Origin: a virus
Taxonomy: Duplodnaviria > Heunggongvirae > Uroviricota > Caudoviricetes
DNA length: 11,916 nt
Virus record (IMG/VR): IMGVR_UViG_2547132488_000014
Coordinates: 1-11,916 of that record
Reading direction: 5' to 3' (one strand)
Position numbers and translations under genes: made by a program. Position 1 is the first letter of the stretch, and every line of letters starts with the position of its first letter. Below, in pieces: positions 1-11,916 of the stretch. The notes under the pieces were generated by a model that saw only the letters and a list, made by a program, of their open reading frames with translations, did not search any database and had not been told where the DNA came from.

Positions 1-501
1 TTTTATTGTCTCAGGGTTGAGATTTTTTTCTTCAAATTGTTTAGCATCGCCAGATAAAAATTTATTAAACTTAGTTAGTTCGCCTGCAGGAACAGTTCTT
101 TGTATTTCTACATATACAACATTTCGCTCTGGGAAATTATCTCTGCGCCATTTCATCTGTTTAAATTTTGCAGTCCTGTTAATATTTTTATCTTTTGAAA
201 TAGGCTTGTCAGTCAATTCGAATCCAATTTCCCAATCACTCATTGAATCATCCCCATAAAATGATTTAGGGAAAAACTTGCTTGGCTTAACATTTTTATA
301 AGCGAGAGCTACAGCACCTAATATAGTCGACTTCCCTCCACCATTAGTCCCGATAAGAGCTGTAACTGGTGTTTTAAACTCCACAATTTCCTCATCAAAC
401 CCTCTGACATTTTTTAATGTGATACGTTTAACATATTGATTGAATTTATTATCTTGAACCTTACCCCTTTCTAACTTCAATTCTGCTGGAGATAATTTCA
501 T
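1..501 (-). CDS. P-loop NTPase with SMC/ABC-type Walker A motif; N-terminal 167 codons only, 3' end beyond the left window edge
   Basis: Manual minus-strand translation from ATG (499-501) is open to position 1: MKLSPAELKLERGKVQDNKFNQYVKRITLKNVRGFDEEIVEFKTPVTALIGTNGGGKSTILGAVALAYKN... Walker A GTNGGGKST. AAGGA Shine-Dalgarno about 6-8 nt upstream; in-frame stop immediately upstream (511-513). Absent from the ORF track because it has no stop inside the window. Visibly AT-rich compared with the tail genes. Confidence 0.65.
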   Translation of the reverse strand, partial: MKLSPAELKLERGKVQDNKFNQYVKRITLKNVRGFDEEIVEFKTPVTALIGTNGGGKSTILGAVALAYKNVKPSKFFPKSFYGDDSMSDWEIGFELTDKPISKDKNINRTAKFKQMKWRRDNFPERNVVYVEIQRTVPAGELTKFNKFLSGDAKQFEEKNLNPETIK

Positions 502-534
502 TTTAATTCCTTAGTTATAATCACAATAAACATC

Positions 535-579
535 AACTTCACACTAATAATTTCATTTAGAAATTATTAGTGTGAAGTT
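535..579. repeat. Perfect inverted repeat: 20-bp arms (535-554 and 560-579) around a 5-bp spacer
   Basis: AACTTCACACTAATAATTTC / attta / GAAATTATTAGTGTGAAGTT; arms are exact reverse complements. Lies 34-78 bp upstream of the ATPase start codon, so a candidate operator or insulating hairpin. Confidence 0.9.
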
Positions 580-596
580 TATAACCAAACAGACGT

Positions 597-668
597 TTCA
601 TCGCTTCATCGCTTCATCGCTTCATCGCTTCATCGCTTCATCGCTTCATCGCTTCATCGCTTCATCGC
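597..668. repeat. Tandem array of nine perfect copies of the octamer TTCATCGC (GCGATGAA on the - strand)
   Basis: Direct reading: units start at 597, 605, 613, 621, 629, 637, 645, 653, 661, with partial units on both flanks. Intergenic, 96-167 bp upstream of the ATPase start. No intervening spacers, so not a CRISPR array. Confidence 0.95.
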
Positions 669-887
669 TTACCAATATATGTCTTCTCGTTACATAAGAA
701 AAGCATCAGCTGAACGTAATGTCGGAAGCCCCATTGGAAAACCGTCACACCTAATAAATTCAGTACGTTATAAAACAGGGTTGTGATATTTTAAGCCAGT
801 ACCCATGCTAGTAAATATCTACTTAATACATTGATTTTTATGTGTTAAATAAAATCGTTGCCTACATATTGCCTCACTTCGACAGTA

Positions 888-907
888 AGCCCGCAACGTT
901 GCGGGCT
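888..907 (-). terminator. Palindromic GC-rich hairpin 5 nt downstream of the methyltransferase stop codon; putative terminator
   Basis: AGCCCGCAACGTTGCGGGCT is a perfect 20-bp palindrome. The U-tract is better in the + direction (TTTGTCTT) than in the - direction, so terminator function for the - strand operon is uncertain. Confidence 0.45.
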
Positions 908-912
908 TTGTC

Positions 913-1704
913 TTATGCTTCGATCGCCGTTTTGAGCCGTTGTGTTGCTACATCAAAATAATGATCACTGGTTTCTATACCAATAAATTTGCGTCCTGCT
1001 TTCAGCGCTGCAACACCCGTTGTTCCCGATCCCATAAAAGGATCAAGGACTGTTCCACCACTATTCGCAGTCCTGACCAGTTCTGCCATAAGTTCTTCTG
1101 GTTTTCCGGTCGGGTGCATTTTCTTTGATGGGATAACCGGGAACGTCATGCAGCCGTCGAACGGTCCCGAAGGCGATTTATCTAAATGGCCTTTACTGCC
1201 CCAGACGATGTATTCGCACTGATGCCGGAAATACCCCGTATGGGGTGTTCGTGACCCCCTTCCTTTGTTCCACGCAATGATGCCGCGCCATGTAAAGCCA
1301 CTGGCCTGAAACGCATCGGTTAAAGCTGGTAATTGTCGCCAGTCAGTAAATACCAGGGCATAACCGCCCGGCCTGACTGCGCGGTGTGCCTGTGCCATCC
1401 ATAATTGTGTCCAGTAAGCCCACGAACGGGCGTCCATGTTTTCACCCGCGAACCCATCAAAACGGTGAAGGCTCTCGCCGTTCAGATATTTTGCATGGCT
1501 GCCCTGGTTGGTGCGTCCGGCCTTGTGTGTCGCACCCGAACTGTAAGGCGGGTCAGTGATTAAGGCATCAATGCTTTCTGGCTCAATCAGCGGCAATATT
1601 TCCAGCGCATTCCCACGACAGAGCGTGGCATTGTCAGTCTGATAAACCTTAGTGTGTTCCGGTGTATGTGCTGGTTGGTGCTGGATTGCGATCCCCACGG
1701 TCAT
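913..1704 (-). CDS. DNA amino-methyltransferase, beta-class (N6-adenine or N4-cytosine), orphan: no cognate restriction gene in the window
   Basis: 263-aa ORF with motif IV DPPY (ITDPPYSS) N-terminal to motif I FxGxG (DPFMGSGTT), the circularly permuted order typical of beta-class N6A/N4C methyltransferases. ATG at 1702-1704. Confidence 0.88.
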   Translation of the reverse strand: MTVGIAIQHQPAHTPEHTKVYQTDNATLCRGNALEILPLIEPESIDALITDPPYSSGATHKAGRTNQGSHAKYLNGESLHRFDGFAGENMDARSWAYWTQLWMAQAHRAVRPGGYALVFTDWRQLPALTDAFQASGFTWRGIIAWNKGRGSRTPHTGYFRHQCEYIVWGSKGHLDKSPSGPFDGCMTFPVIPSKKMHPTGKPEELMAELVRTANSGGTVLDPFMGSGTTGVAALKAGRKFIGIETSDHYFDVATQRLKTAIEA

Positions 1705-1846
1705 AACTCCTCATGTGTGTGGGGTGCTCGATGGCTCTCGTTATCTGGTTAAGTGTTTTGCAGCGCGGACATTTTATTTCAATGTAGTGAAATGAGGCGC
1801 GGGCAAGTAGTTTGTTGCAATTTTTGCATCGTACATTTTGCGTCAT
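1649..1846 (-). CDS. com: Com-like zinc-finger protein (phage Mu Com family translational activator), overlapping the methyltransferase start
   Basis: Translation MTQNVRCKNCNKLLARASFHYIEIKCPRCKTLNQI... has a CxxC-N16-CxxC zinc ribbon closely resembling Mu Com as recalled (RCKNCNKLL...HIEI.CPRCK). ATG at 1844-1846 with AGAGG Shine-Dalgarno 8 nt upstream; an in-frame GTG at 1853-1855 is the alternative start. Stop at 1649-1651 is 55 nt inside the methyltransferase ORF, in a different frame. Confidence 0.7.
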   Translation of the reverse strand: MTQNVRCKNCNKLLARASFHYIEIKCPRCKTLNQITRAIEHPTHMRSYDRGDRNPAPTSTYTGTH

Positions 1847-1893
1847 TTGCGGCACCTCTTGTGTGGTTACTGCTGCCGATATGATAACAAATC

Positions 1894-1928
1894 GATCGTT
1901 TTTATCGATCGGATTTATTGCATCGATC
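1894..1928. promoter_or_regulatory. Cluster of three GATC (Dam) sites, each within ATCGATC, in the presumed promoter region of the com-methyltransferase operon
   Basis: GATC at 1894-1897, 1907-1910 and 1925-1928, embedded in aATCGATCg, tATCGATCg and cATCGATCt. Lies 50-80 bp upstream of the com start on the - strand. Resembles the three-GATC regulatory region upstream of the Mu mom promoter. Confidence 0.4.
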
Positions 1929-1976
1929 TGTTATGCCTATTGCTTATGTATGGTGCCCTCATTTGTGAGGGTAGCA

Positions 1977-2010
1977 AAAAGAAAACCCGCAGTTTTTACG
2001 CTGCGGGTTT
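1977..2010 (-). terminator. Rho-independent terminator downstream of the TM2-domain gene
   Basis: Stem 1985-1992 ACCCGCAG pairs with 2001-2008 CTGCGGGT, extendable by two A:T pairs. On the - strand it is followed by UCUUUUUG. Sits about 25 nt after the TM2 gene stop (2036). Confidence 0.7.
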
Positions 2011-2035
2011 GTTGTTCTGATTCGCCCACTAGGCA

Positions 2036-2332
2036 TTAGCCATATTTGCGGGCAAAGTCTTCATCAGAGGTGCATAGATAGATAAAAAACTCAATAAATG
2101 CCACGATTGCCGGAATGAATGTCCAGCAAAAAATAAGGTAAAGGAATCCTTGCCCCACTTTACCTAAATAAAATTTGTGTGCACCAAGACCACCTAAAAA
2201 GAAAGCCAGTAGTGCGGCTGTCATTCTGCTTTTTGAACTTGCTGTTCTTTGAGGTGCTCCACAATTGGGGCAGGATGTGGCATCTTTATGTATTTCCTTG
2301 CCGCATCCGCGACAAAATACCATTTCACTCAT
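2036..2332 (-). CDS. Small membrane protein with N-terminal zinc ribbon and TM2 domain
   Basis: 98-aa ORF: CRGCGKEIHKDATSCPNCGAP (two CxxC) followed by two hydrophobic helices and a GGLGAHKFYLG motif typical of TM2-domain proteins. AAAGGAAC Shine-Dalgarno upstream of ATG at 2330-2332. Confidence 0.8.
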   Translation of the reverse strand: MSEMVFCRGCGKEIHKDATSCPNCGAPQRTASSKSRMTAALLAFFLGGLGAHKFYLGKVGQGFLYLIFCWTFIPAIVAFIEFFIYLCTSDEDFARKYG

Positions 2333-2467
2333 AAAGAGTTCCTTTCAAATTTAAATAAGCGTTAAGCCCACCACTCTTACTGGTGGGCCTCAATTTAAAT
2401 TTGGGTGCCACTTCGACCATACCTTGGCAACCGATTGACGGGGGATTGCTCCCCCGTCGCGGTTTCC

Positions 2468-2608
2468 TTACTGCTTACACTGTAAGAACGCCGCAAACTC
2501 CGCTCCCCAGAAGCTCATCCGTATTTCACACAGCGAACCGTGTAGCATCCAGATGATGAGGATTACCGTCACGCAGAACGTGATGGCCGTAAGCGATTTT
2601 TGCGACAT
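2468..2608 (-). CDS. hok: Hok/Gef-family type I toxin (small membrane-active killer peptide), 46 aa
   Basis: Manual translation MSQKSLTAITFCVTVILIIWMLHGSLCEIRMSFWGAEFAAFLQCKQ: short polar N-terminus, one transmembrane helix, SLCEIR identical to plasmid R1 Hok, and AAFLxCK tail as in HokA. AAGGAG Shine-Dalgarno about 7 nt upstream of ATG (2606-2608); TAA stop at 2468-2470. Below the length cut-off of the ORF track. Confidence 0.7.
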   Translation of the reverse strand: MSQKSLTAITFCVTVILIIWMLHGSLCEIRMSFWGAEFAAFLQCKQ

Positions 2609-2799
2609 AGCGCTTGCTCCTTTGTTGGAGAGGCGCTAACCTATCACTTGCTTAAGGTAGATATGTTAGGGCCTCGGTTAAACAAAAATGTTTTCCGGGG
2701 CCTTTCCACATCTGGCCTTCGGGTATTCCCTCCGACCATCAGCCGAAAGGCACCCGCGCGTAATCTATCGCTTTTTTGTTACTCCGGCAATTCTGCCTG

Positions 2800-3060
2800 T
2801 TAATTCTGAGGTAAAGGCAAACTCATCTGATTGTTTCCCCTGTGTGAAGCTGGCAGTTCATGCCACGGGATACCTTCTGAAGAGTGAACGCCGGAGGCAT
2901 GTTTCGATGTGAATTTATGGAAAGCTTCCAGTGTTGAGAAGCATACGCCGCATTCCAGATTGTTACACTGGTAATACTTTTGCCGCACGGTGTTTGAATC
3001 ATTTTCCGGACGACTGGTGCGGATACGGGCAGATGCGCCACAAAGCGGACAACGGAACAT
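2800..3060 (-). CDS. ogr: Ogr/Delta-family zinc-finger transcriptional activator of phage late genes
   Basis: Begins MFRCPLCGASARIRTSR...YYQCNNLECGVCF, matching the N-terminus and Cys spacing of P2 Ogr as recalled (MFHCPLC...). Immediately downstream of gpD, as in P2. Confidence 0.85.
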   Translation of the reverse strand: MFRCPLCGASARIRTSRPENDSNTVRQKYYQCNNLECGVCFSTLEAFHKFTSKHASGVHSSEGIPWHELPASHRGNNQMSLPLPQN

Positions 3061-3102
3061 AGCGACCTCCCTTAACGTGGTGCTGCCGCTATTCTAAGTT
3101 GC

Positions 3103-4212
3103 TCACTCTGTTTCCGCTATCCATTCCGGGATTTTTGCCTCAAGCTCAAGCTGCGTGGTAAAGCCGCTGTTATCAATGGTGTGCTCGGCTTTTGCAATAA
3201 TCCAGTCCTGATTATCAATCTCGCTTTTAAATCCTGTTACCGTGCCATGCATTTCGGGGTAGAGTTCTGCACGTCCACGCGCCAGCGTGATGGAGAATGA
3301 TGCGGCTCCGCGTTGTAGCTGCTGCCACTTTGCCGCCGCTGCGCGTCTTGCTGCCTGCTCGTTCTGATAAGTCTTGCGTAACACAAACACATTGCCTTCC
3401 GCGCCTTCCATATAATCACCTTCACGGCTGCTGCTTTTCTCCTTTTTGGGCTTGGGCGGTTTGCGGCGTTTCACGCTGACTTTTTTCTTTTTCCCGTAAT
3501 TAAGATCAAGCCAGTAAGCGCGTACCCCCGTATACGCTTCGCGGTCAGCAATGCGGAACTGATGGCGATCGCCGCTGCTGCGTGTGATGGCAAACGATGG
3601 CAACGGCTGGCCCTGTGCGTTCACGCCGCCGCCGGGCATGATGAATAACAGATTACCGCTTTTTACCGTGGTGATTGCGCCCAGCATTTCCGCCATGCGC
3701 GTAAGGAAGGACATGTCGCTTTCTTCGGTCTGGTCGGCGTGGTCGATTTCGATATCCATCAGCATTTCGCTGATTTGCGGTTTCAGACCATACCGATGAG
3801 CGATGGCGGATACCACACGCTCAACGGTCACATCATGCCAGGACACCTCACGTTTAACGTTAAATTCATCCCGAAAATCTGCGCTTCTGGCTGAAACAGT
3901 CAGCCTGTCCGGCGGTCCTTCGTGAGCGATTTCATCAACAATGTAAGTGCCTTTTTCTGTCAGCGGTTCTCCCTTCCAGCCAATGAGAACCGTCAGGCGC
4001 GCGCCCCGTGGCGGTAGCTGCAACTGACCATCCGCATCATCCAGCATGATGGTGAGCTGGTCCGCCTCAAATCCCCGGTTGTCGGTCAGTGACAGGCTCA
4101 TCAGGCGCTCTGCCACGCCTGACAGCGTTTTACCCTCCGCGAGAATATCAAAATCCGGCATTTTCACGGGGTCTGTGCCCTGACTGAGCAATTGCATGGT
4201 GGTGTCGGTCAT
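3103..4212 (-). CDS. D: Tail protein gpD (P2 late control gene D family)
   Basis: Large ORF directly upstream of ogr on the same strand, about the size of P2 gpD. Start set at the internal ATG (4210-4212; MTDTTMQLL...), preceded by GGGAGGGAG. The ORF-track start at 4344 adds 44 residues with no ribosome-binding site. Confidence 0.85.
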   Translation of the reverse strand: MTDTTMQLLSQGTDPVKMPDFDILAEGKTLSGVAERLMSLSLTDNRGFEADQLTIMLDDADGQLQLPPRGARLTVLIGWKGEPLTEKGTYIVDEIAHEGPPDRLTVSARSADFRDEFNVKREVSWHDVTVERVVSAIAHRYGLKPQISEMLMDIEIDHADQTEESDMSFLTRMAEMLGAITTVKSGNLLFIMPGGGVNAQGQPLPSFAITRSSGDRHQFRIADREAYTGVRAYWLDLNYGKKKKVSVKRRKPPKPKKEKSSSREGDYMEGAEGNVFVLRKTYQNEQAARRAAAAKWQQLQRGAASFSITLARGRAELYPEMHGTVTGFKSEIDNQDWIIAKAEHTIDNSGFTTQLELEAKIPEWIAETE

Positions 4213-4369
4213 CTGCTCCCTCCCTGTGTGGCATGGTCGCATGTGCGTGCGGAGGGGGTTACTGCTTTTTGTTGTCGCCGTGGCGGGAGAATGGCGCAGG
4301 GGTGAGATTGCGCGCGTGGTGGGTGATGATTGTTGCCGAATCATTTAACGGATACAAGGGGCTGAAGCT

Positions 4370-5554
4370 ATGAGTGAAACTCGTTTTCATGGTGCCCGTG
4401 TTACGGAAAATACCGACCTGGTAACAGCGATTAACGATGTTGATTCCAGCGTTATCGGTATCGTGGCAACGGCGGATGATGCGGACGCGAAGCTGTTCCC
4501 GCTGAACAAGCCCACACTGCTGACCCGCGTCAATGACGTGCTGGGAAAATGCGGGACAACGGGGACGCTTTATCGTGCGCTTAAGGCCATCGCAGACCAG
4601 GTGAGCACAAAGGTGATCGTCGTTCGCGTGGCTGAACACAAAGAAGAAGACGGAAAAACGCAGGATCAACTGGTTATCGGTGGTTCTGAATCTGACGGCA
4701 GCTATACGGGGATGTATGCGCTGCTTGTTGCAGAGCAGGATGAAAGCATCGGATACCGTCCGCGTATTCTGGCCGCGCCGGAGCTGGACACGGAGGCGGT
4801 GACAAAATCCCTGTGCGTGATTGCGGGTAAACTGCGCGCGTTTGTGTATGCCTCATGTCACGGCTGTAACACGATGGCTGAGGCAATTACCTACCGCCAG
4901 AAATTCAACGAACGAGAGGTGATGCTCTTATGGCCGGACTTCATCGCCTACAACCCGAAAAGTGGCAAAAACGAAACGTTCCCCGCGCCTGCCTATGCGT
5001 GCGGCCTTCGTGCGTACATTGACCATGAACAGGGCTGGCACAAATCGCTGTCCAACGTTCCGGTTAAAAATGTGCTGGGGATGTCCGGGCATGTGTTCTG
5101 GTCGTTGCAGGCCGAAGACAGTGATGCCAACAGCCTCAACAACAAAGAAATCACGACCATTATTCGTCGCAACGGGTTCCGCTTCTGGGGCAACCGCACA
5201 CCGGAAACGAACGCCTACATCTTTGAGGTGTATACCCGAACCGCACAGGTGCTGGCTGATTCAATTGCGGAAGCGCAGTTTGAAACCATCGACAGTCCGC
5301 TGACGCCTGCGAACGTGAAGGATGTTATCAGCGCCATCAGGGCAAAACTGGATTCACTGGTGACTGCCGGGAAACTGATTGGGGCGTCGTGCTGGTATGA
5401 CGTGGTGGATAACGGCACCACGAATTTACGTCAGGGGCGCGTGCGTATTCGCTACAAATATACGCCAGTTCCCCCGCTGGAAGACATGGAGCTTTACCAG
5501 TCGTTTACTGATGAATTCTTTGGTCCCGCATTTGCGGTGCTGGGAGGTGCCTGA
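4370..5554 (+). CDS. FI: Contractile tail sheath protein (gpFI)
   Basis: 394 aa, first gene of a sheath-tube-chaperone-tape measure-gpU series; size and position as in the P2 FETUD operon. AAGGGG Shine-Dalgarno 9 nt upstream of the ATG. Confidence 0.88.
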   Translation: MSETRFHGARVTENTDLVTAINDVDSSVIGIVATADDADAKLFPLNKPTLLTRVNDVLGKCGTTGTLYRALKAIADQVSTKVIVVRVAEHKEEDGKTQDQLVIGGSESDGSYTGMYALLVAEQDESIGYRPRILAAPELDTEAVTKSLCVIAGKLRAFVYASCHGCNTMAEAITYRQKFNEREVMLLWPDFIAYNPKSGKNETFPAPAYACGLRAYIDHEQGWHKSLSNVPVKNVLGMSGHVFWSLQAEDSDANSLNNKEITTIIRRNGFRFWGNRTPETNAYIFEVYTRTAQVLADSIAEAQFETIDSPLTPANVKDVISAIRAKLDSLVTAGKLIGASCWYDVVDNGTTNLRQGRVRIRYKYTPVPPLEDMELYQSFTDEFFGPAFAVLGGA

Positions 5555-6066
5555 TGGCTGTACCAAAACATCTTCGCTTTTTTACGCTGTTTGTGGATGG
5601 TGAAAACGAAGTGGGTAAGGTGACGTCCGTCACCCTGCCTAAACTGACGCGCAAAACCGACAGCTACCGGGGTGGCGGCATGATGGGAGCGGTAAGTATT
5701 GATCTCGGCCTGGATGACTCCGCGCTTGATGCGAGCTTTGTCATGGGGGGCGCAGTTCGTGAGCTGTTCCTTAAGTATGGCGGCACGATTGACGGCACGC
5801 TGCTGCGTTTTGCGGGTGAATACTACACCGATGCAGAAAGCGACCTGTATGAAGTCGAAATGCGCGGACGTGTGACGGAAATTGATATGGGGGAAGCCAA
5901 ACAGGGCGAAGCCACATCACACACTTACGCCATTAAAAACACCTACTACAAGCTGAGTGTTAACGATCGCCCGTTGTGGGAGATTGACCTGCTGAACTTC
6001 ATCTACCGGAAGGACGGCAAGGACATTGTGCCTGACCGTATCCGTTCCGCGCTTGGGCTTGGCTGA
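5554..6066 (+). CDS. FII: Tail tube protein (gpFII)
   Basis: 170 aa directly after the sheath gene; its ATG overlaps the sheath stop (TGATG), indicating translational coupling; GGGAGGTG upstream. Confidence 0.85.
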   Translation: MAVPKHLRFFTLFVDGENEVGKVTSVTLPKLTRKTDSYRGGGMMGAVSIDLGLDDSALDASFVMGGAVRELFLKYGGTIDGTLLRFAGEYYTDAESDLYEVEMRGRVTEIDMGEAKQGEATSHTYAIKNTYYKLSVNDRPLWEIDLLNFIYRKDGKDIVPDRIRSALGLG

Positions 6067-6120
6067 TAAGTAATATGCAGGCGGCGCAGTGCGTCGCCTC
6101 TGACTGAAAGGAGTTTCCTG

Positions 6121-6486
6121 ATGAAAGAGACGAAAAACATCGATACCGAAAACACGGTAGTTACTGACACTGTGAAAGAAACCAGTGAGCGTGGCGTAAA
6201 ACTTACCCAACCCATTGAGCGAGGCGACGAAAAAATCACGTATGTGGAGATCACCGGGGCTATTGAGCAGGCTGGATCTCTGCGAGATTTGTCGCTGTCT
6301 GATGTGCTGAATCTGAAAGCGGAATCCATGTTTACGCTGCTGTCACGCGTGACATCACCGCGACTGGATGAAGTGACGATCAAAAAAATGGCATCCCGTG
6401 ACTTTATTCAGTTATGTGTGGTTGCCGTAAATTTTTTGAGCGGTGCGGACTCTGGCGGGAAGAACGAACAGGCGACGGAAGCCTGA
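6121..6486 (+). CDS. E: Tail assembly chaperone gpE (zero-frame product)
   Basis: 121-aa ORF between tube and tape measure genes; contains the slippery heptamer near its 3' end. Confidence 0.82.
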   Translation: MKETKNIDTENTVVTDTVKETSERGVKLTQPIERGDEKITYVEITGAIEQAGSLRDLSLSDVLNLKAESMFTLLSRVTSPRLDEVTIKKMASRDFIQLCVVAVNFLSGADSGGKNEQATEA

Positions 6487-6650
6487 TCACGGTTGTGTGC
6501 TTTGAGCACATAGAAGACTTTGTGGCAGATATTGCCGTTATTTTTAACTGGTCGCCCGCCGAAATCTTCATGATGACGCCCGGCGAAGTGGTTAGCTGGC
6601 GTGAGCGGGCGGCACTTCGCAGCGGGAGGGCAGACAATGAAGACTCTTGA
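6121..6650 (+). CDS. E': Tail assembly chaperone E+E', product of a programmed -1 ribosomal frameshift near 6432-6438
   Basis: The -1 frame ORF 6414-6650 overlaps the 3' end of E and ends at TGA 6648-6650, overlapping the tape measure start. The heptamer T TTT TTG sits in X XXY YYZ register in the E frame. Same architecture as P2 E/E'. Confidence 0.75.
6432..6438 (+). other. Slippery heptamer TTTTTTG (programmed -1 frameshift site for E/E')
   Basis: E-frame codons AAT TTT TTG place the heptamer in X XXY YYZ register; the -1 frame is open from this point to 6650. Confidence 0.75.
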
Positions 6651-9444
6651 TATCCGGGTCGCTTTCAGCGCCGTTGACAGGCTGACCCGGCCTGCCGAAA
6701 ACGCCCGCCGCCTGATGGGGCAGTTTGGTGACTCCATCCAGCGAACGCAGGGGGCGATCAAAAATCTCGAGCGTCAGGCGCGTTCATTTGAGCGCGCCCG
6801 CGACGCTGTCAGTAAAGCGGATGCGGGCATCGTGAAAGCACGACGCCAGCTTAACGCCCTTAATCAGTTACAACGCACGGGTACAGTGCTCAGCGAAAAA
6901 CAACAAAAGCTGATGCAGCAGTTAAGCACCCGGCTTGAACGCCTGAATGAATCGCGCACACGGGAAATTCAGAAAATGCGGGAACTTGGCGGAGAGCTGA
7001 AACGCCACGGCATTTCCCTGACAGGCAGCGATAACACCATCCAGCAGGCCATCAGACGCACCGAACAGTACAACAACCAGCTTGAACGCGAACGGCAGGC
7101 GCTTGCGCGTGTAACGCGGGCGCGTGAGCGGTATTCGCGCGCGCAGGAAACCGCGGGAAAACTGAAAACAGGTGGTGCGCTGGCAATTGGTGCGGCAGCG
7201 GCTGGCGGCTATGCTACCGGGCGTTTTTTGCAGCCTGCGATCGGGTTCGGGAAAGAGATGTCCCGCGTTCAGGCACTGACGCGAATCGACCAGAACAGCC
7301 CGCAGTTTAAGGCGCTGCGTGAGCAGGCGTTAAAACTTGGCTCTGAAACGCAGTTCACCGCAGGCGATGCCGCCAGTGGACAGGCATTTCTTGCAATGGC
7401 TGGCTTCACTCCACAGGCCATTCAGGCTGCGCTTCCCGGCGTGCTGAGCATGGCAACGGCTGGCGGTATGGATCTCGGCGAGACGGCAGATATTGGCTCA
7501 AATATCCTGACGCAGTTCGGCCTTTCTGCTGACCAGATGGACCGGGTCGGTGACACACTCACCGCAGCGTTTACCCGTACCAACACTGACCTTCGCGCAC
7601 TGGGCGAAACCATGAAATATGCAGGTCCGGTGGCGGGTAAGCTGGGAATATCGCTGGAGCAGGCCGCAGCGATGGCTGGCGTGCTGGCGAATATGGGCAT
7701 CAGAGGGAGTGATGCCGGGACGGCAATGCGTGCCAGCCTGGCTCGTCTGGCATCACCGCCAAAGGCGGCGGCAGAGGCGCTGAAAGAGCTTGGTGTGGCA
7801 GTTTCTGACGCGAACGGCAAAATGCGCCCGATGGAGGATGTGCTGGCCGACCTTTATAAAGCCACCCGCAAATACGGGGAAGTTGACCGGGTATCCTTCT
7901 TTAAGGACATCGCCGGGGAAGAGGCTTTCACATCGTTTATGGCGCTCGTTGATGCGGCAGGTGACGGTTCCTTACCCAAACTGAGAAAAGAACTTGAAGG
8001 CGCACGCGGTGAGGCTGAACGCACGGCAAAGGTTATGGCCAACAACCTTGATGGCGATCTGAAATCACTCGGCAGTGCATGGGAAGGGTTGCGCATCCGC
8101 ATTGCAGATCTGATTGACGGCCCGCTGCGTTCTGTCACGCAGTGGCTCACGCGGGTGGTATCAAGGGTGACGGCGCTGGCGCAGGCCCATCCGGCACTGA
8201 CGCGCCAGTTACTGATAGCAGGCGGTGCGTTGCTGGCAATGACTGCAACGATTGGCTCGTTGTCGCTGGTTATTGGCGTGCTTCACGGGAAACTGGCCAC
8301 GTTACGTCTTGGTTTTTCTCTCCTGACCGGATCAATGAATGTCGTCAGGGTGCTGCCAGCACTATGGGGAATGGTAACAGGTTCCATCTCGTTGCTGGGT
8401 GGCGCTATCGGGGCGCTGTTCAGTCCGGTCGGATTGATTGTTGCCGCGTTTGTGGCTGCGGCGGTTCTCATCTGGAAATACTGGGAACCCATCAAGGCGT
8501 TTTATGCCGGGGTGTTCAGTGGGATTATGGAACGGCTGGCTCCGTTGCGCGAAACCTTTGAACGGTTTGGTCCTGTTTTTGATGTCGTGCGCGATGGGAT
8601 TATTCAGCTCTTTAACTGGTTTAAATCGCTGCTGTCACCGATGGAGTCCAGCAAGGAAACGCTGGATAAATGTACCAGTGCTGGCGAGATATTCGGTAAC
8701 GTTCTTGGTGGCGCGCTACAGCTTGTTCTGACGCCTGCAAAAATGCTGCTGGATACGCTGGCGTGGATACTTGAAAAACTCGGTGTGCTTCCGGATGAAG
8801 CGGAAAGGGCGAGAAAGAAAATCGAAGACGCACAGCGTGCGGCCATTCTTCAGGACAAGGTTGCCTTGCTTCAGGGGGACCTGGCGAAAATCAATCCGCC
8901 GAAGCCTGTGGAAAATGGCAATGGCACCGGAGGTGATAAACCCAAAGACAATAAACCGCTCACAGACAGCAACACCGGAACGCTACGCAGGCTCAGCAAA
9001 ATTGCTGATAACACAGGTAAGCTGGTTGATGAGACGAAAAAACGCATTGGCCCCGGCGATATTGTCTTTAAGAACCTGCCCCGCGCACTTGCTGTTCGTG
9101 GGGAGTGGCAGGAGCGGAAGATTGCGCAGGTCAGTAAGCCTGCCCCCGCAATTAATATCCCCCCCGTGGTCCCGGCTCCGCTGCCTCCGGCGCTGGTCCC
9201 TGTTGTTGCGGCCAGCTCCCGCCCGGTGGCGGAGGCCATACGATCGCCAGTGGCATCAGTTCCTGTAACTTCCCGTAACCGGGAGCCTGTTGCCTCCGGA
9301 TTTGGTGGTGAAATTCATGTTCATCTGCATAACGTTGTTACGCAGAATCCCCGCGAACTGGCGAAACTGGTCGGTGAAATGGTCAGGGCAGAAATGGAAC
9401 GGCGCGCCCGTGCCGGGCGTGGCAGTTTTTACGATAAAGATTGA
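6637..9444 (+). CDS. T: Tail tape measure protein (gpT)
   Basis: Largest ORF in the window. N-terminal coiled-coil-like region, central Gly/Ala-rich hydrophobic segments, Pro/Ala-rich C-terminal region. Start set at ATG 6637 (MKTLDIRV...), preceded by GGGAGGG, rather than the GTG at 6601. Confidence 0.9.
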   Translation: MKTLDIRVAFSAVDRLTRPAENARRLMGQFGDSIQRTQGAIKNLERQARSFERARDAVSKADAGIVKARRQLNALNQLQRTGTVLSEKQQKLMQQLSTRLERLNESRTREIQKMRELGGELKRHGISLTGSDNTIQQAIRRTEQYNNQLERERQALARVTRARERYSRAQETAGKLKTGGALAIGAAAAGGYATGRFLQPAIGFGKEMSRVQALTRIDQNSPQFKALREQALKLGSETQFTAGDAASGQAFLAMAGFTPQAIQAALPGVLSMATAGGMDLGETADIGSNILTQFGLSADQMDRVGDTLTAAFTRTNTDLRALGETMKYAGPVAGKLGISLEQAAAMAGVLANMGIRGSDAGTAMRASLARLASPPKAAAEALKELGVAVSDANGKMRPMEDVLADLYKATRKYGEVDRVSFFKDIAGEEAFTSFMALVDAAGDGSLPKLRKELEGARGEAERTAKVMANNLDGDLKSLGSAWEGLRIRIADLIDGPLRSVTQWLTRVVSRVTALAQAHPALTRQLLIAGGALLAMTATIGSLSLVIGVLHGKLATLRLGFSLLTGSMNVVRVLPALWGMVTGSISLLGGAIGALFSPVGLIVAAFVAAAVLIWKYWEPIKAFYAGVFSGIMERLAPLRETFERFGPVFDVVRDGIIQLFNWFKSLLSPMESSKETLDKCTSAGEIFGNVLGGALQLVLTPAKMLLDTLAWILEKLGVLPDEAERARKKIEDAQRAAILQDKVALLQGDLAKINPPKPVENGNGTGGDKPKDNKPLTDSNTGTLRRLSKIADNTGKLVDETKKRIGPGDIVFKNLPRALAVRGEWQERKIAQVSKPAPAINIPPVVPAPLPPALVPVVAASSRPVAEAIRSPVASVPVTSRNREPVASGFGGEIHVHLHNVVTQNPRELAKLVGEMVRAEMERRARAGRGSFYDKD

Positions 9445-9450
9445 GGAGTC

Positions 9451-9945
9451 ATGGCCATGATGATGATCTACGGCATGTTTGTTTTTGAGCTGCGCACGTT
9501 GCCGCATCAGCAGTTACAGCAAAACAAAAGCTGGCGGCATGTGAAAAATGAACGCGTTAACCGTTCAGCAAGCTGGCAGTATATCGGGGCAGGCGATGAT
9601 CGCATCGTTCTTTCTGGTGTGCTTTATCCTGAAATTACAGGTGGCGAAGTGTCGCTTTCGTTGCTGACCACACAGGCATATACAGGACGCCCCTGGCCTC
9701 TGATTGATGGTGTCGGGCAGATTTACGGCATGTATGTCCTGACCGGAACGAATACGACCCATTCCGAGTTTGATCGCTACGGTAAGGCGAAAAAGATAGA
9801 ATTTTCACTGACCCTTGAACGCTGTGATGAGGATTTGCGGGGGCGCCTGCAATCCTCATCGTTCAGCGATATGCTGTCCGGCTTCAAAGATAAGGTGACA
9901 GCATCCATTAACAACGCGGCCAGTTCAGTTAAAGGGCTGTTCTGA
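9451..9945 (+). CDS. U: Tail protein gpU
   Basis: 164-aa ORF directly after the tape measure gene, GAGGAG upstream. Start is ambiguous among ATGs at 9451, 9457, 9460 and 9463 (MAMMMIYGMFVFELRT...). Confidence 0.78.
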   Translation: MAMMMIYGMFVFELRTLPHQQLQQNKSWRHVKNERVNRSASWQYIGAGDDRIVLSGVLYPEITGGEVSLSLLTTQAYTGRPWPLIDGVGQIYGMYVLTGTNTTHSEFDRYGKAKKIEFSLTLERCDEDLRGRLQSSSFSDMLSGFKDKVTASINNAASSVKGLF

Positions 9946-9946
9946 T

Positions 9947-10159
9947 TTGGAAGAGCAGAGGCAGCAGGCGGAAAATGAAAAGCAAAGCCTGCTACAGCTC
10001 GTCAGGGATAAAACCCAGCTATGGGACTCACAGCTACGGCTGGGCATCATTTCCGACGAGAATAAACAAAAATTAACCGAGTGGATGCTCTATGCGCAGA
10101 AGGTCGAATCCACAGACACCTCCAGCCTGCCAGTAACGTTTCCAGAACAACCAGAATGA
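9947..10159 (+). pseudogene. Truncated tail fiber assembly protein (Tfa) C-terminal fragment, no ATG start
   Basis: The 70-residue reading frame (..QQAENEKQSLLQLVRDKTQLWDSQLRLGIISDENKQKLTEWMLYAQKVESTDTSSLPVTFPEQPE) aligns with the C-terminus of the intact Tfa on the other strand (..[63 protein letters not shown]). Frame is open only from 9899, has no ATG (first candidate is TTG at 9947, 1 nt after the gpU stop), and lacks the N-terminal two thirds. Confidence 0.6.
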
Positions 10160-10162
10160 AAC

Positions 10163-10189
10163 AAGGCCCGCTATCGGGCCTTAATTTTT
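10163..10189. terminator. Bidirectional Rho-independent terminator between the convergent Tfa fragment and Tfa
   Basis: Perfect 8-bp stem AAGGCCCG / CGGGCCTT with loop CTAT, followed on the + strand by AATTTTTATT. Lies 3 nt after the + strand stop and 5 nt after the Tfa stop on the - strand. Confidence 0.7.
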
Positions 10190-10715
10190 ATTCAGGCTTT
10201 TGTGGCCATTCAGGATTTGCCGTATCCACACGGCTGACCAGAACGCTGTAGCGTTCCCATGCTTCCAGTCGTGTGCGTTCCTCGTCTGTTGCCATATTCA
10301 GCCTGACAGCGCGTTCCAGCGGCTGGATGACTGATTCAGCTTCGGAAATCAACGCGGCCTTTTGTGATTCGGCCTGTTGTTGCTGTTCGTCAGCCGTATA
10401 AATCCGCTTAATCACAGCACCATCCTTAAACATCCATTTACCTGAGTCATCAGCACGTCGGTTGGCGGTAATATCAGGAACCTCGACAACGCTAAAACCT
10501 TCAGGGTTAAGCGTGGAGGCATCTTTGGTGATGGCGACAATAATATTATTTTCGTCGTATACAATCTTTATGGTGTCGTCCTGAAAGTTATTTACTTCCT
10601 CATACCAGTTTTTACCGTCTTCTGTATATAACCAGATAACATCAAAATTCTTTGTTAGCTGACATTGCTCTTTTGTTTTTGGATTTCCTGACTTAATATT
10701 TTTTAAATGCTGCAT
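10188..10715 (-). CDS. G: Tail fiber assembly protein (Tfa; P2 gpG / Mu U family)
   Basis: 175 aa with the conserved Tfa C-terminus (...[27 protein letters not shown]). ATG 3 nt after the tail fiber stop (TAA ATT ATG), AGGTG upstream. Confidence 0.88.
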
Positions 10716-10718
10716 AAT

Positions 10719-11916
10719 TTACACCTGTGCGACGTTATACCATGTGCCATTGATGTATTTTTGTATTGGTCTGAAGATGGCTTCATCATCGCCATCTACT
10801 TCACCAATGATTCTTAATCCGGTAATTGCGTGTCCGGCTTTTTCATAACGACCACCACGCGCCATCAATTGAACAACACGCGTACCCAGGCGAACATCTT
10901 TCACATAACGGGAATCAAAGTTACCGTAATCCGAGGGGTTAACACGCCCTGTAATATTTATGGTTTTATTACTTTGAATGCTGCCGGAGACAAAGCGCAT
11001 AACATGGACGTTATTAGCATAAACGTCCAGATTACCGTCGCCATTTTGTTTAAAGCCCGTGTCATTATCACCCAAAACAATCGAGTTACCGCCAAGAGCA
11101 CTGGATGTTCCGATACCCAGTGCACCATTCAATTGACCACCAGATAATGACAACGCCCCAACATCAGCAGCAGTCGGTTTTATGTGCGAACTGTAAATTA
11201 CATATACAGTCCCATCTGTCAGGCCTGTCGGTTTATTCGCTGTATAAGTTGGTGATGTATGAATTTGTACAGTGGCATCCTTTGTATAATCCCACTGGAT
11301 ATTAACACCCGTGGCGTAATTACCTATTTCTACATAAATGTCATAGGTATCACCGGATGTATTCACCCATGCAAAATTAGTAAATCCAACCGAGGTCCGT
11401 CGCCATAATGCACCAGTAATACCCTTTGGATTTCCATTTCCGGCACGCAGAACCAGCTCAGAGATGCCTGCTTGCTGCGGGGAGCCAACGTTATACCCTG
11501 CACCACCAATCAGACTTATGTAAACCACGGAACTGGCTTGTGGCATTGTTACAGTTGCCAGTTTGAACCATCCAGCACCACCACTAAAAGACATGGTTGT
11601 TGAATTTGTTGTGCCGATATTACGCAGGAATAGTTTTTTATCGGGAATATCTGCGCCGTTCTGGTTTTTCTGTAATGCGCCAGAAGCCTGATTTACCGTT
11701 TCCTGTAAACCGAGGTATTCGATAACGGCGGCAACGGTCGATTTCGCAAGAATATCCCGCCCTACTTTTGTCAGAGTTGCCAGGCTGGCGACATCATTCC
11801 CCGTAAAATACGGAAACCTGTCTGCCGCAGTAGCAAGCCCGGCCAGCGCCGTCAGGGTGGCATCTTTCGGTTGCTTACCCGCAAGCGCGTTAGTCATGGT
11901 GGTCGCAAAATTCGGG
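10719..11916 (-). CDS. H: Tail fiber protein (P2 gpH-like), C-terminal part; 5' end lies beyond the right window edge
   Basis: Frame is open to the window edge with no stop upstream of the listed Met at 11897, so the gene is 5'-truncated by the window. Contains the tail-fiber junction motif ...LTALAGLATAADRFPYFTGNDVASLATLTKVGRDILAKSTVAAVIEYLGLQET... followed by a Gly/Ser/Thr/Asn-rich distal region. Directly upstream of Tfa. Confidence 0.85.
   Translation of the reverse strand, partial: PNFATTMTNALAGKQPKDATLTALAGLATAADRFPYFTGNDVASLATLTKVGRDILAKSTVAAVIEYLGLQETVNQASGALQKNQNGADIPDKKLFLRNIGTTNSTTMSFSGGAGWFKLATVTMPQASSVVYISLIGGAGYNVGSPQQAGISELVLRAGNGNPKGITGALWRRTSVGFTNFAWVNTSGDTYDIYVEIGNYATGVNIQWDYTKDATVQIHTSPTYTANKPTGLTDGTVYVIYSSHIKPTAADVGALSLSGGQLNGALGIGTSSALGGNSIVLGDNDTGFKQNGDGNLDVYANNVHVMRFVSGSIQSNKTINITGRVNPSDYGNFDSRYVKDVRLGTRVVQLMARGGRYEKAGHAITGLRIIGEVDGDDEAIFRPIQKYINGTWYNVAQV
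11700..11725. other. gix/cix/pix-like 26-bp sequence (candidate Gin/Pin-family DNA invertase crossover site) inside the tail fiber gene
   Basis: TTCCTGTAAACC GA GGTATTCGATAA compared with the Mu gix site as recalled (TTCCTGTAAACC GA GGTTTTGGATAA): 24 of 26 identical. Encodes the IEYLGLQE junction of the fiber protein. Confidence 0.45.

Follow-up and report, generated by a model that had tools for sequence, protein, structure and literature searches.

The stretch of DNA analysed here (the window) comprises 11,916 nucleotides, positions 1 to 11,916 of IMG/VR record IMGVR_UViG_2547132488_000014 (Caudoviricetes), and is the end of a P2-like (P88/Xuanwuvirus-like) E. coli prophage. E. coli strain EC361 is identical to the window over positions 1–1000 and carries its prophage between raiA and pheL, with the integrase gene at the pheL end. 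A 20-bp direct repeat, CCTTCGGGCGCGTTTTTTGT, marks the two ends of the prophage there; it coincides with the raiA terminator and is the att core (copies at 7363–7382 of locus L001 and 25578–25597 of locus L217). The genes and features run in the order ogr, hok, TM2, com, methyltransferase, array, nuclease, att. Because the att repeats bound the prophage, the tandem array and the nuclease gene lie inside it, in an accessory region opposite the integrase end.

The left end of the window holds the 5′ part of the nuclease gene (1–501, minus strand; ATG at 501–499), of which the first 167 codons are present before the gene exits the window. A Shine-Dalgarno-like AAGGA (508–512, minus strand) precedes the ATG by 6 nt and is conserved in the Salmonella and IMG/VR relatives described below. 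The full gene, read from locus L001, encodes 489 amino acids and matches the PADLOC HEC-04 profile with an E-value of 1.8e-203, residues 2–488 aligning with profile positions 5–488 of 494. Pfam matches are to the ABC-type ATPase domains AAA_15 and AAA_21. All 19 homologues compared have the Walker A motif (G54-G55-G56-K57-S58-T59), E316/D317, and D372/D374 unchanged; K57, E316, D372, and D374 sit three to five residues before the tested HEC-04 residues K62, E319, D375, and D377, a correspondence drawn from position. Judged by its sequence, the gene is a full-length HEC-04/IbfA-type ABC-ATPase and TOPRIM anti-phage nuclease. The label of ATPase gene given in the initial annotation was therefore correct but incomplete, the 489-aa product being an ABC-ATPase joined to a TOPRIM nuclease of the HEC-04/IbfA defence family.

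HEC-04, in which an ABC ATPase is fused to a TOPRIM nuclease domain, defends E. coli against phages that include T4 and T5. Defence requires the Walker A lysine and the TOPRIM acidic residues, and the system was assayed without inducer owing to apparent toxicity. Its plasmid homologue, ibfA, causes abortive infection. Phage resistance is established for the HEC-04 representative and for IbfA, and is predicted for the window allele by family membership. The gene is annotated as intact in 17/17 complete genomes that carry it.

Upstream of this gene lies an array of nine head-to-tail TTCATCGC units at 597–668, without a single mismatch and followed by TT; on the strand of the downstream gene the unit reads GCGATGAA. 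The array stands 96–167 bp from the ATG of the nuclease, the only gene it precedes. Tandem Repeats Finder reports an array at 597–670 with period 8, 9.2 copies, 100% matches, 0% indels, and consensus TTCATCGC, and this is the sole array in the window scoring above 50. The raw sequence and the program thus agree with the initial description of nine perfect units 96–167 bp before the gene start. Such an array of nine perfect 8-bp units, joined head to tail, has the purity expected of a simple-sequence-repeat contingency locus. A given 72-base periodic string is expected about 1e-35 times in 11.9 kb by simple arithmetic, which excludes a chance origin. The array recurs in 17 independent complete E. 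coli assemblies, and two contigs assembled from short reads by k-mers (Logan; L149 and L150, positions 1–31) also enter it, so it is no assembly artefact. Both Logan contigs stop ~31 bases into the repeat. This indicates that the array breaks k-mer assemblies and that only long-read assemblies are informative on copy number; in most draft genomes the array is invisible and its copy number unreadable. A literature search with the repeat sequence returned no paper.

The nuclease gene and its upstream DNA form a cassette that is mosaic cargo. In other genomes the cassette adjoins hok-ogr or a YafO toxin–antitoxin pair. Beyond it in the window lies a DNA methyltransferase gene (913–1704, minus strand, 263 aa) with a Com-family gene upstream, and just past the methyltransferase stop codon a GC-rich hairpin is followed by a T run (887–908, plus strand). 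A near copy of this hairpin occurs beyond the nuclease gene, outside the window. The cassette lies between direct-repeat copies of the methyltransferase 3′ end (260 bp, 90% identical) together with the terminator (L001 7472–7781 versus window 899–1194), suggesting that it was acquired through recombination between related phages with different cargo. The upstream DNA itself is composite. The region at 669–796, which contains one TGTGACGG motif at 742–749, belongs to the cassette side, and its 739–795 part also adjoins a different cargo gene, an acyltransferase, in other prophages. The segment at 797–883 is prophage backbone common to a related cassette-free prophage: together with the methyltransferase module it is shared with the prophage of strain E423, which lies next to prpB without the nuclease cassette. 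We considered 739–796 as an attachment site and rejected it, as the real att core, CCTTCGGGCGCGTTTTTTGT, is found ~2.2 kb to the left and again beside the integrase gene. The cassette was not found in searches of plasmid and phage collections.

Annotations elsewhere in these prophages bear on their integrity. The methyltransferase of strain A_5 (L003 3445–4237) is full-length but annotated as frameshifted, and in EC361 (L001 12103–12956) and several other strains the annotation shows a shortened late-control D gene next to a pseudogene fragment. Some of the prophages could thus be defective.

Copy number and origin of the array

The cassette is present in 17 of 5,426 complete E. coli genomes, and all 17 carry the array. 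We fetched each of these genomes and counted units. Two genomes have 7 units, three have 8, six have 9 (as does the window), two have 11, and four have 13, so that array length is 56, 64, 72, 88, or 104 bp, invariably a whole multiple of 8 bp, with 7 as the minimum among the cassette-bearing complete genomes. These are assembly-level counts, taken from assemblies rather than reads, although whole-unit errors in long-read assemblies are unlikely.

Sequence around the array is far more stable. Across the 17 genomes, 2,331 bp of flanking DNA contain at most 21 substitutions and resolve into eight haplotypes. The three haplotypes with more than one member have copy numbers of 9/13/13/13/9/9, 9/8/8, and 9/8/7, and nine-unit arrays are found in four haplotypes. 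Copy number differs even where longer flanks match perfectly: ETEC1716, ETEC1718, and ETEC1717 have 9, 8, and 7 units with 0 mismatches in 5,814 bp, rl0044 and ETEC1749 have 13 and 9 units with 0 mismatches in 5,928 bp, and S1-CHI-01-A and ST69 have 9 and 8 units with 0 mismatches in 5,810 bp. Differences between strains with mismatch-free flanks make the array the fastest-changing feature of the locus. We conclude with near certainty that it is a hypermutable repeat whose gain and loss of whole 8-bp units far outpaces the accumulation of point changes in its flanks. The comparison across related genomes proposed in the initial annotation thus yielded a range of 7–13 units, varying even where flanks are identical, and upheld its suggestion of length change by slipped-strand mispairing. 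Whole-unit differences in copy number between close strains, as seen among these 17 genomes, are also expected of a contingency locus.

The distribution of imperfect units fits a repeat homogenised by slippage. Variant units (TACATCGC, TACATCTC, TTCATCTC, and TTCATCGT) are nearly confined to the gene-proximal edge of the array, the one interior exception being unit 4 of strain A_5. By arithmetic, the observed copy numbers 7, 8, 9, 11, and 13 share no helical phase; this fits both an array that tunes expression and a neutral repeat.

Comparison with relatives of the nuclease indicates when the array arose. Nucleases 93–94% identical to that of the window are encoded on one Salmonella contig and four from IMG/VR; on these contigs the DNA upstream of the gene aligns with the window up to the ATG at ~75% identity. 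At the array site they have only AAGAGAGAAAATGATGTAAG, about two degenerate units. The array itself is confined to copies of the cassette that are <1% diverged. It is therefore a recent, lineage-specific expansion, and the recent origin proposed initially is borne out by these close relatives with merely about two degenerate units at the homologous site. More distant homologues (73–78% identity) have unrelated upstream DNA. We scanned 52 regions upstream of HEC-04 relatives for tandem repeats (48 IMG/VR loci and 4 others, including the E. coli locus L148 as a positive control), and a comparable array was found only in the L148 control. With no convergent array upstream of HEC-04 homologues, the array is not a conserved or recurrent design of this family.

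A scan of a genome collection for four tandem units recovered TTCATCGC arrays of 4–16 copies in 35 unrelated genomes (L014–L048) from Arthrobacter, Bacteroidales, Planctomycetes, Paraburkholderia, and others. These arrays occupy mixed coding and non-coding positions, some within long open frames. None of the genomes is enterobacterial and nothing ties them to the window locus, so they are uninformative on function. A metagenome scan with the 18-base left flank, TATAACCAAACAGACGTT, gave only chance matches in an unrelated conserved gene, none of them with an array.

Candidate promoters, palindrome, and leader

Three promoter candidates on the minus strand would place the array in different positions relative to transcription. 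P1 (547–576; TTCACA, 18 nt, AATTAT, with an upstream TG) lies between the array and the nuclease gene, inside a palindrome, and if used would put the array at about −57 to −128. P3 (674–702; TTTTCT, 17 nt, TATATT) would start transcription from the first repeat unit and make the array the 5′ end of the leader; its −10-like hexamer aligns with TATCTT in the relatives. P2 (788–815; TTTACT, 16 nt, TAAAAT) would place the array inside a 5′ UTR of ~280 nt, and the mosaic junction at 796/797 falls within P2. In consensus and weight-matrix scans for promoters the best scores were 7.1 and 6.7, below the mean best score of 7.5 for shuffled sequence. As the scores of P1, P2, and P3 do not rise above shuffles, no promoter call is justified from sequence. 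The Salmonella relative has promoter-like sites both upstream of the proto-repeat position and between the proto-repeat and the ATG, with the best-scoring one upstream.

Whichever candidate is used, the array is too long to act as the initial annotation proposed, by changing promoter spacing in the classic sense. An array of 56–104 bp cannot lie between −35 and −10 elements, which are separated by a spacer of 16–19 bp, and no pair of hexamers brackets it. A spacer-type switch is thereby excluded, and the array can alter only the distance from far-upstream DNA to the core promoter or the length of the 5′ UTR.

The palindrome occupies 532–582, between the array and the ATG, with 23-nt arms that are 96% complementary around a 5-nt centre. 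It carries the promoter-like TTCACA-18-AATTAT on both strands. Its RNA is predicted to form a 20-bp hairpin (z = −5.5) followed by a U-rich stretch. The 93–94% identical relatives are without this long palindrome; at its site in the Salmonella relative, where it is absent, z is −0.07. This palindrome, specific to the E. coli form of the cassette, may serve as an insulating terminator, as an operator, or as a target of RNase III. The 12 bases around the nuclease start codon (492–503), AAATGAAATTAT on the minus strand, recur in its centre and right arm (547–558), and part of the palindrome may thus derive from a duplicated gene start.

The repeats contribute little to predicted RNA structure. 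In the predicted fold of a 316-nt minus-strand leader (z = −1.7) they are mostly unpaired and form no long helix. The strong hairpin at this locus is formed by the separate palindrome at 532–582 and not, as in the hmw type discussed below, by the repeats. An Rfam search of 400–1000 on both strands produced no hit approaching a family threshold. On the minus strand every unit contains an ATG that overlaps a TGA, and the last ATG in the window opens a 14-codon ORF that ends in the hairpin loop. Attenuation by the corresponding leader peptide (MKRLFGYKLHTNNF*) was considered and rejected, the last unit reading ATG-TAA in 7 of the 17 genomes. A small protein encoded across the array by the plus-strand ORF at 572–697 was likewise discarded; this ORF has neither a ribosome-binding site nor a counterpart in the relatives.

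Array length and nuclease expression

The array is an intergenic simple-sequence repeat of a known type in an unusual place, the defence cargo of a temperate phage in E. coli. Among its closest parallels are loci where intergenic repeats modulate expression. In Haemophilus influenzae, the (ATCTTTC)n repeats of hmw1A and hmw2A are transcribed and form the left arm of a hairpin cut by RNase III, and output is graded, in inverse proportion to repeat length (PMC12721329). Like the window array, the hmw repeats have a multi-base unit (7 versus 8 bp), form a long intergenic array directly upstream of the gene, and vary between isolates, and both loci have a long hairpin in the leader region. However, the hmw repeats are part of that hairpin, whereas in the window little pairing is predicted for the repeats and a distinct palindrome forms the hairpin. 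The genes also differ, an adhesin as against a defence nuclease, and the host of the former is rich in such loci, unlike E. coli. In Helicobacter pylori, the length of a promoter-proximal T-tract immediately upstream of the −35 element of sabA shifts upstream DNA relative to the core promoter and produces multiphasic output; it works without a trans-acting factor and affects contact with an UP-like element (PMC4081817). This is the mechanism that would apply to the window array if P1 is used. The sabA tract is, however, a homopolymer that changes in one-base steps beside the −35, whereas the window array changes in 8-bp steps and leaves promoter-adjacent DNA unchanged. In Neisseria meningitidis, a TAAA tract lies upstream of the nadA core promoter, and the number of its units tunes expression by altering how upstream sites are placed, an effect that relies on defined regulator and IHF sites on either side of it. 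The nadA tract shares a multi-base repeat with the window array, at which no regulator or IHF sites were identified.

Other parallels concern the kind of gene or genome. Phase-variable mod and hsd restriction–modification genes usually have their repeats in the coding sequence and switch by frame-shift (PMC7383803). These are likewise hypermutable repeats on anti-phage genes, and they give mixed populations of defended and undefended cells; the window array differs in being intergenic and in preceding an ATPase-TOPRIM nuclease. Homopolymer tracts of at least 6 bases, mostly within ORFs, were recently reported in the lytic coliphages T2 and T4 and proposed to serve bet-hedging (PMC12633550). 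They too are slippage-prone phage repeats, whereas the window array is an intergenic 8-mer on the defence cargo of a temperate phage. The VNTR loci used for MLVA typing of E. coli have short units, are often found in prophages or intergenic DNA, vary between close strains, and are treated as neutral markers. The window array resembles them in variability; no link to defence genes is claimed for MLVA loci. Repeat-based contingency loci are generally considered scarce in E. coli.

We tentatively propose, at somewhat less than an even chance, that copy number matters for nuclease expression through graded, rheostat-like tuning, with the array acting either ahead of the promoter or as part of the 5′ UTR. 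On this reading, the array that grew out of about two degenerate units in the control region before the prophage nuclease gene would adjust expression by degrees as its length changes, with no clean on/off switch. Such changes could shift distant upstream DNA with respect to a core promoter within the last 96 bp, or could alter a transcribed leader ending in the 20-bp hairpin. The graded control exerted by intergenic repeats at hmw1A and sabA provides precedents for this reading. Against it, no promoter candidate outscores shuffled sequence, promoter-adjacent DNA would stay constant under P1 with only far-upstream DNA moving, the copy numbers have no helical phase in common, the repeats are mostly unpaired in the predicted leader, and other HEC-04 relatives have no comparable array upstream. 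A neutral variable-number tandem repeat is almost as likely. Here a chance near-duplication in AT-rich cargo would have crossed the threshold for slippage, and array length would since have drifted without meaningful effect. Restriction of the array to a cassette <1% diverged, with none in close relatives or upstream of other homologues, agrees with such an origin, as do the tolerance of 7 to 13 units with no common helical phase and the occurrence of TTCATCGC arrays in mixed contexts in 35 unrelated genomes. Neither a supported promoter nor a supported RNA structure involves the array. Neutrality is harder to reconcile with a location 96 bp before the start codon of a toxic gene, at which expression often responds to 8–48 bp changes in the upstream DNA or leader, and with the lack of any cassette-bearing complete genome below 7 units and the recurrence of nine units in four flank haplotypes.

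Three further explanations appear far less probable. The initial annotation had offered iterated regulator sites as an alternative, in which a protein regulating the nuclease promoter would bind each 8-bp unit or pair of units. Regulator sites are often arranged as direct repeats ahead of a gene, and a separate cluster of TGTGAYGG motifs exists upstream in relatives, but a head-to-tail period of 8 bp rotates successive sites by ~270 degrees around the helix, copy number is unfixed at 7–13, and the homologous upstream DNA of the relatives is without the units. Perfect identity among units is a signature of slippage rather than of selection on sites, and we regard this explanation as very improbable. 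Equally hard to credit is an on/off switch acting through a −35/−10 spacer or through frame-shift of a small ORF running through the array (572–697 on the plus strand, or mini-ORFs on the minus strand). In its favour, all three plus-strand frames are open through the array, a 41-codon GTG ORF spans it, and each minus-strand unit supplies an ATG. However, the array far exceeds any promoter spacer, the plus-strand ORF has the deficiencies given above, the 14-codon ORF is not conserved, and copy numbers show no bias toward one frame. The array might also be the 5′ part of a plus-strand non-coding RNA running from the palindromic promoter-like site at 538–567 to the terminator at 887–908, since the palindrome presents identical promoter-like hexamers on both strands and the 887–908 hairpin is oriented as a plus-strand terminator. 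This terminator is, however, phage backbone that is present in cassette-free prophages, and with no Rfam match and a promoter score not above shuffles, such an RNA is scarcely to be expected.

If graded tuning does operate, a population of lysogens would hold cells with differing levels of a costly defence. It is conceivable, though on balance we think it unlikely, that lysogens include both strongly defended cells that poison themselves and fit cells with weak defence, a phage-encoded bet-hedging of an abortive-infection-type gene. To our knowledge, how prophages restrain toxic anti-phage nucleases of the HEC-04 type is largely unknown. Should the repeat set expression, it would provide a simple example of stochastic defence-gene dosing in E. 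coli on a mobile element, and would extend repeat-based phase variation beyond the restriction–modification genes of Haemophilus, Neisseria, Helicobacter, and Campylobacter. Whatever its function, the array is a high-resolution length marker for lineages carrying the prophage.

Other repeats in the accessory region

Additional repeated motifs were observed upstream of related cargo genes. In the Salmonella relative (L162 1719–1985), eight TGTGAYGG motifs in both orientations occur within 270 bp upstream of the nuclease, where 0.14 are expected, accompanied by 11-bp and 9-bp repeats. The window has one copy, at 742–749. E. coli NT1F10 and phage ESSI2_ev239 have the same cluster beside the acyltransferase cargo gene. 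The cluster looks like a candidate set of binding sites for some protein. It does not consist of integrase arm sites, which read ATCCACA/TGTCCACA and lie beside the att core. In the same accessory region, NT1F10 has three tandem copies of TGTGATGCTCT (L156 ~3560–3600), and ESSI2_ev239 has one copy together with two diverged ones (L157 ~3060–3090); TGTGATGCTCT may be a second length-variable repeat of this part of the prophage.
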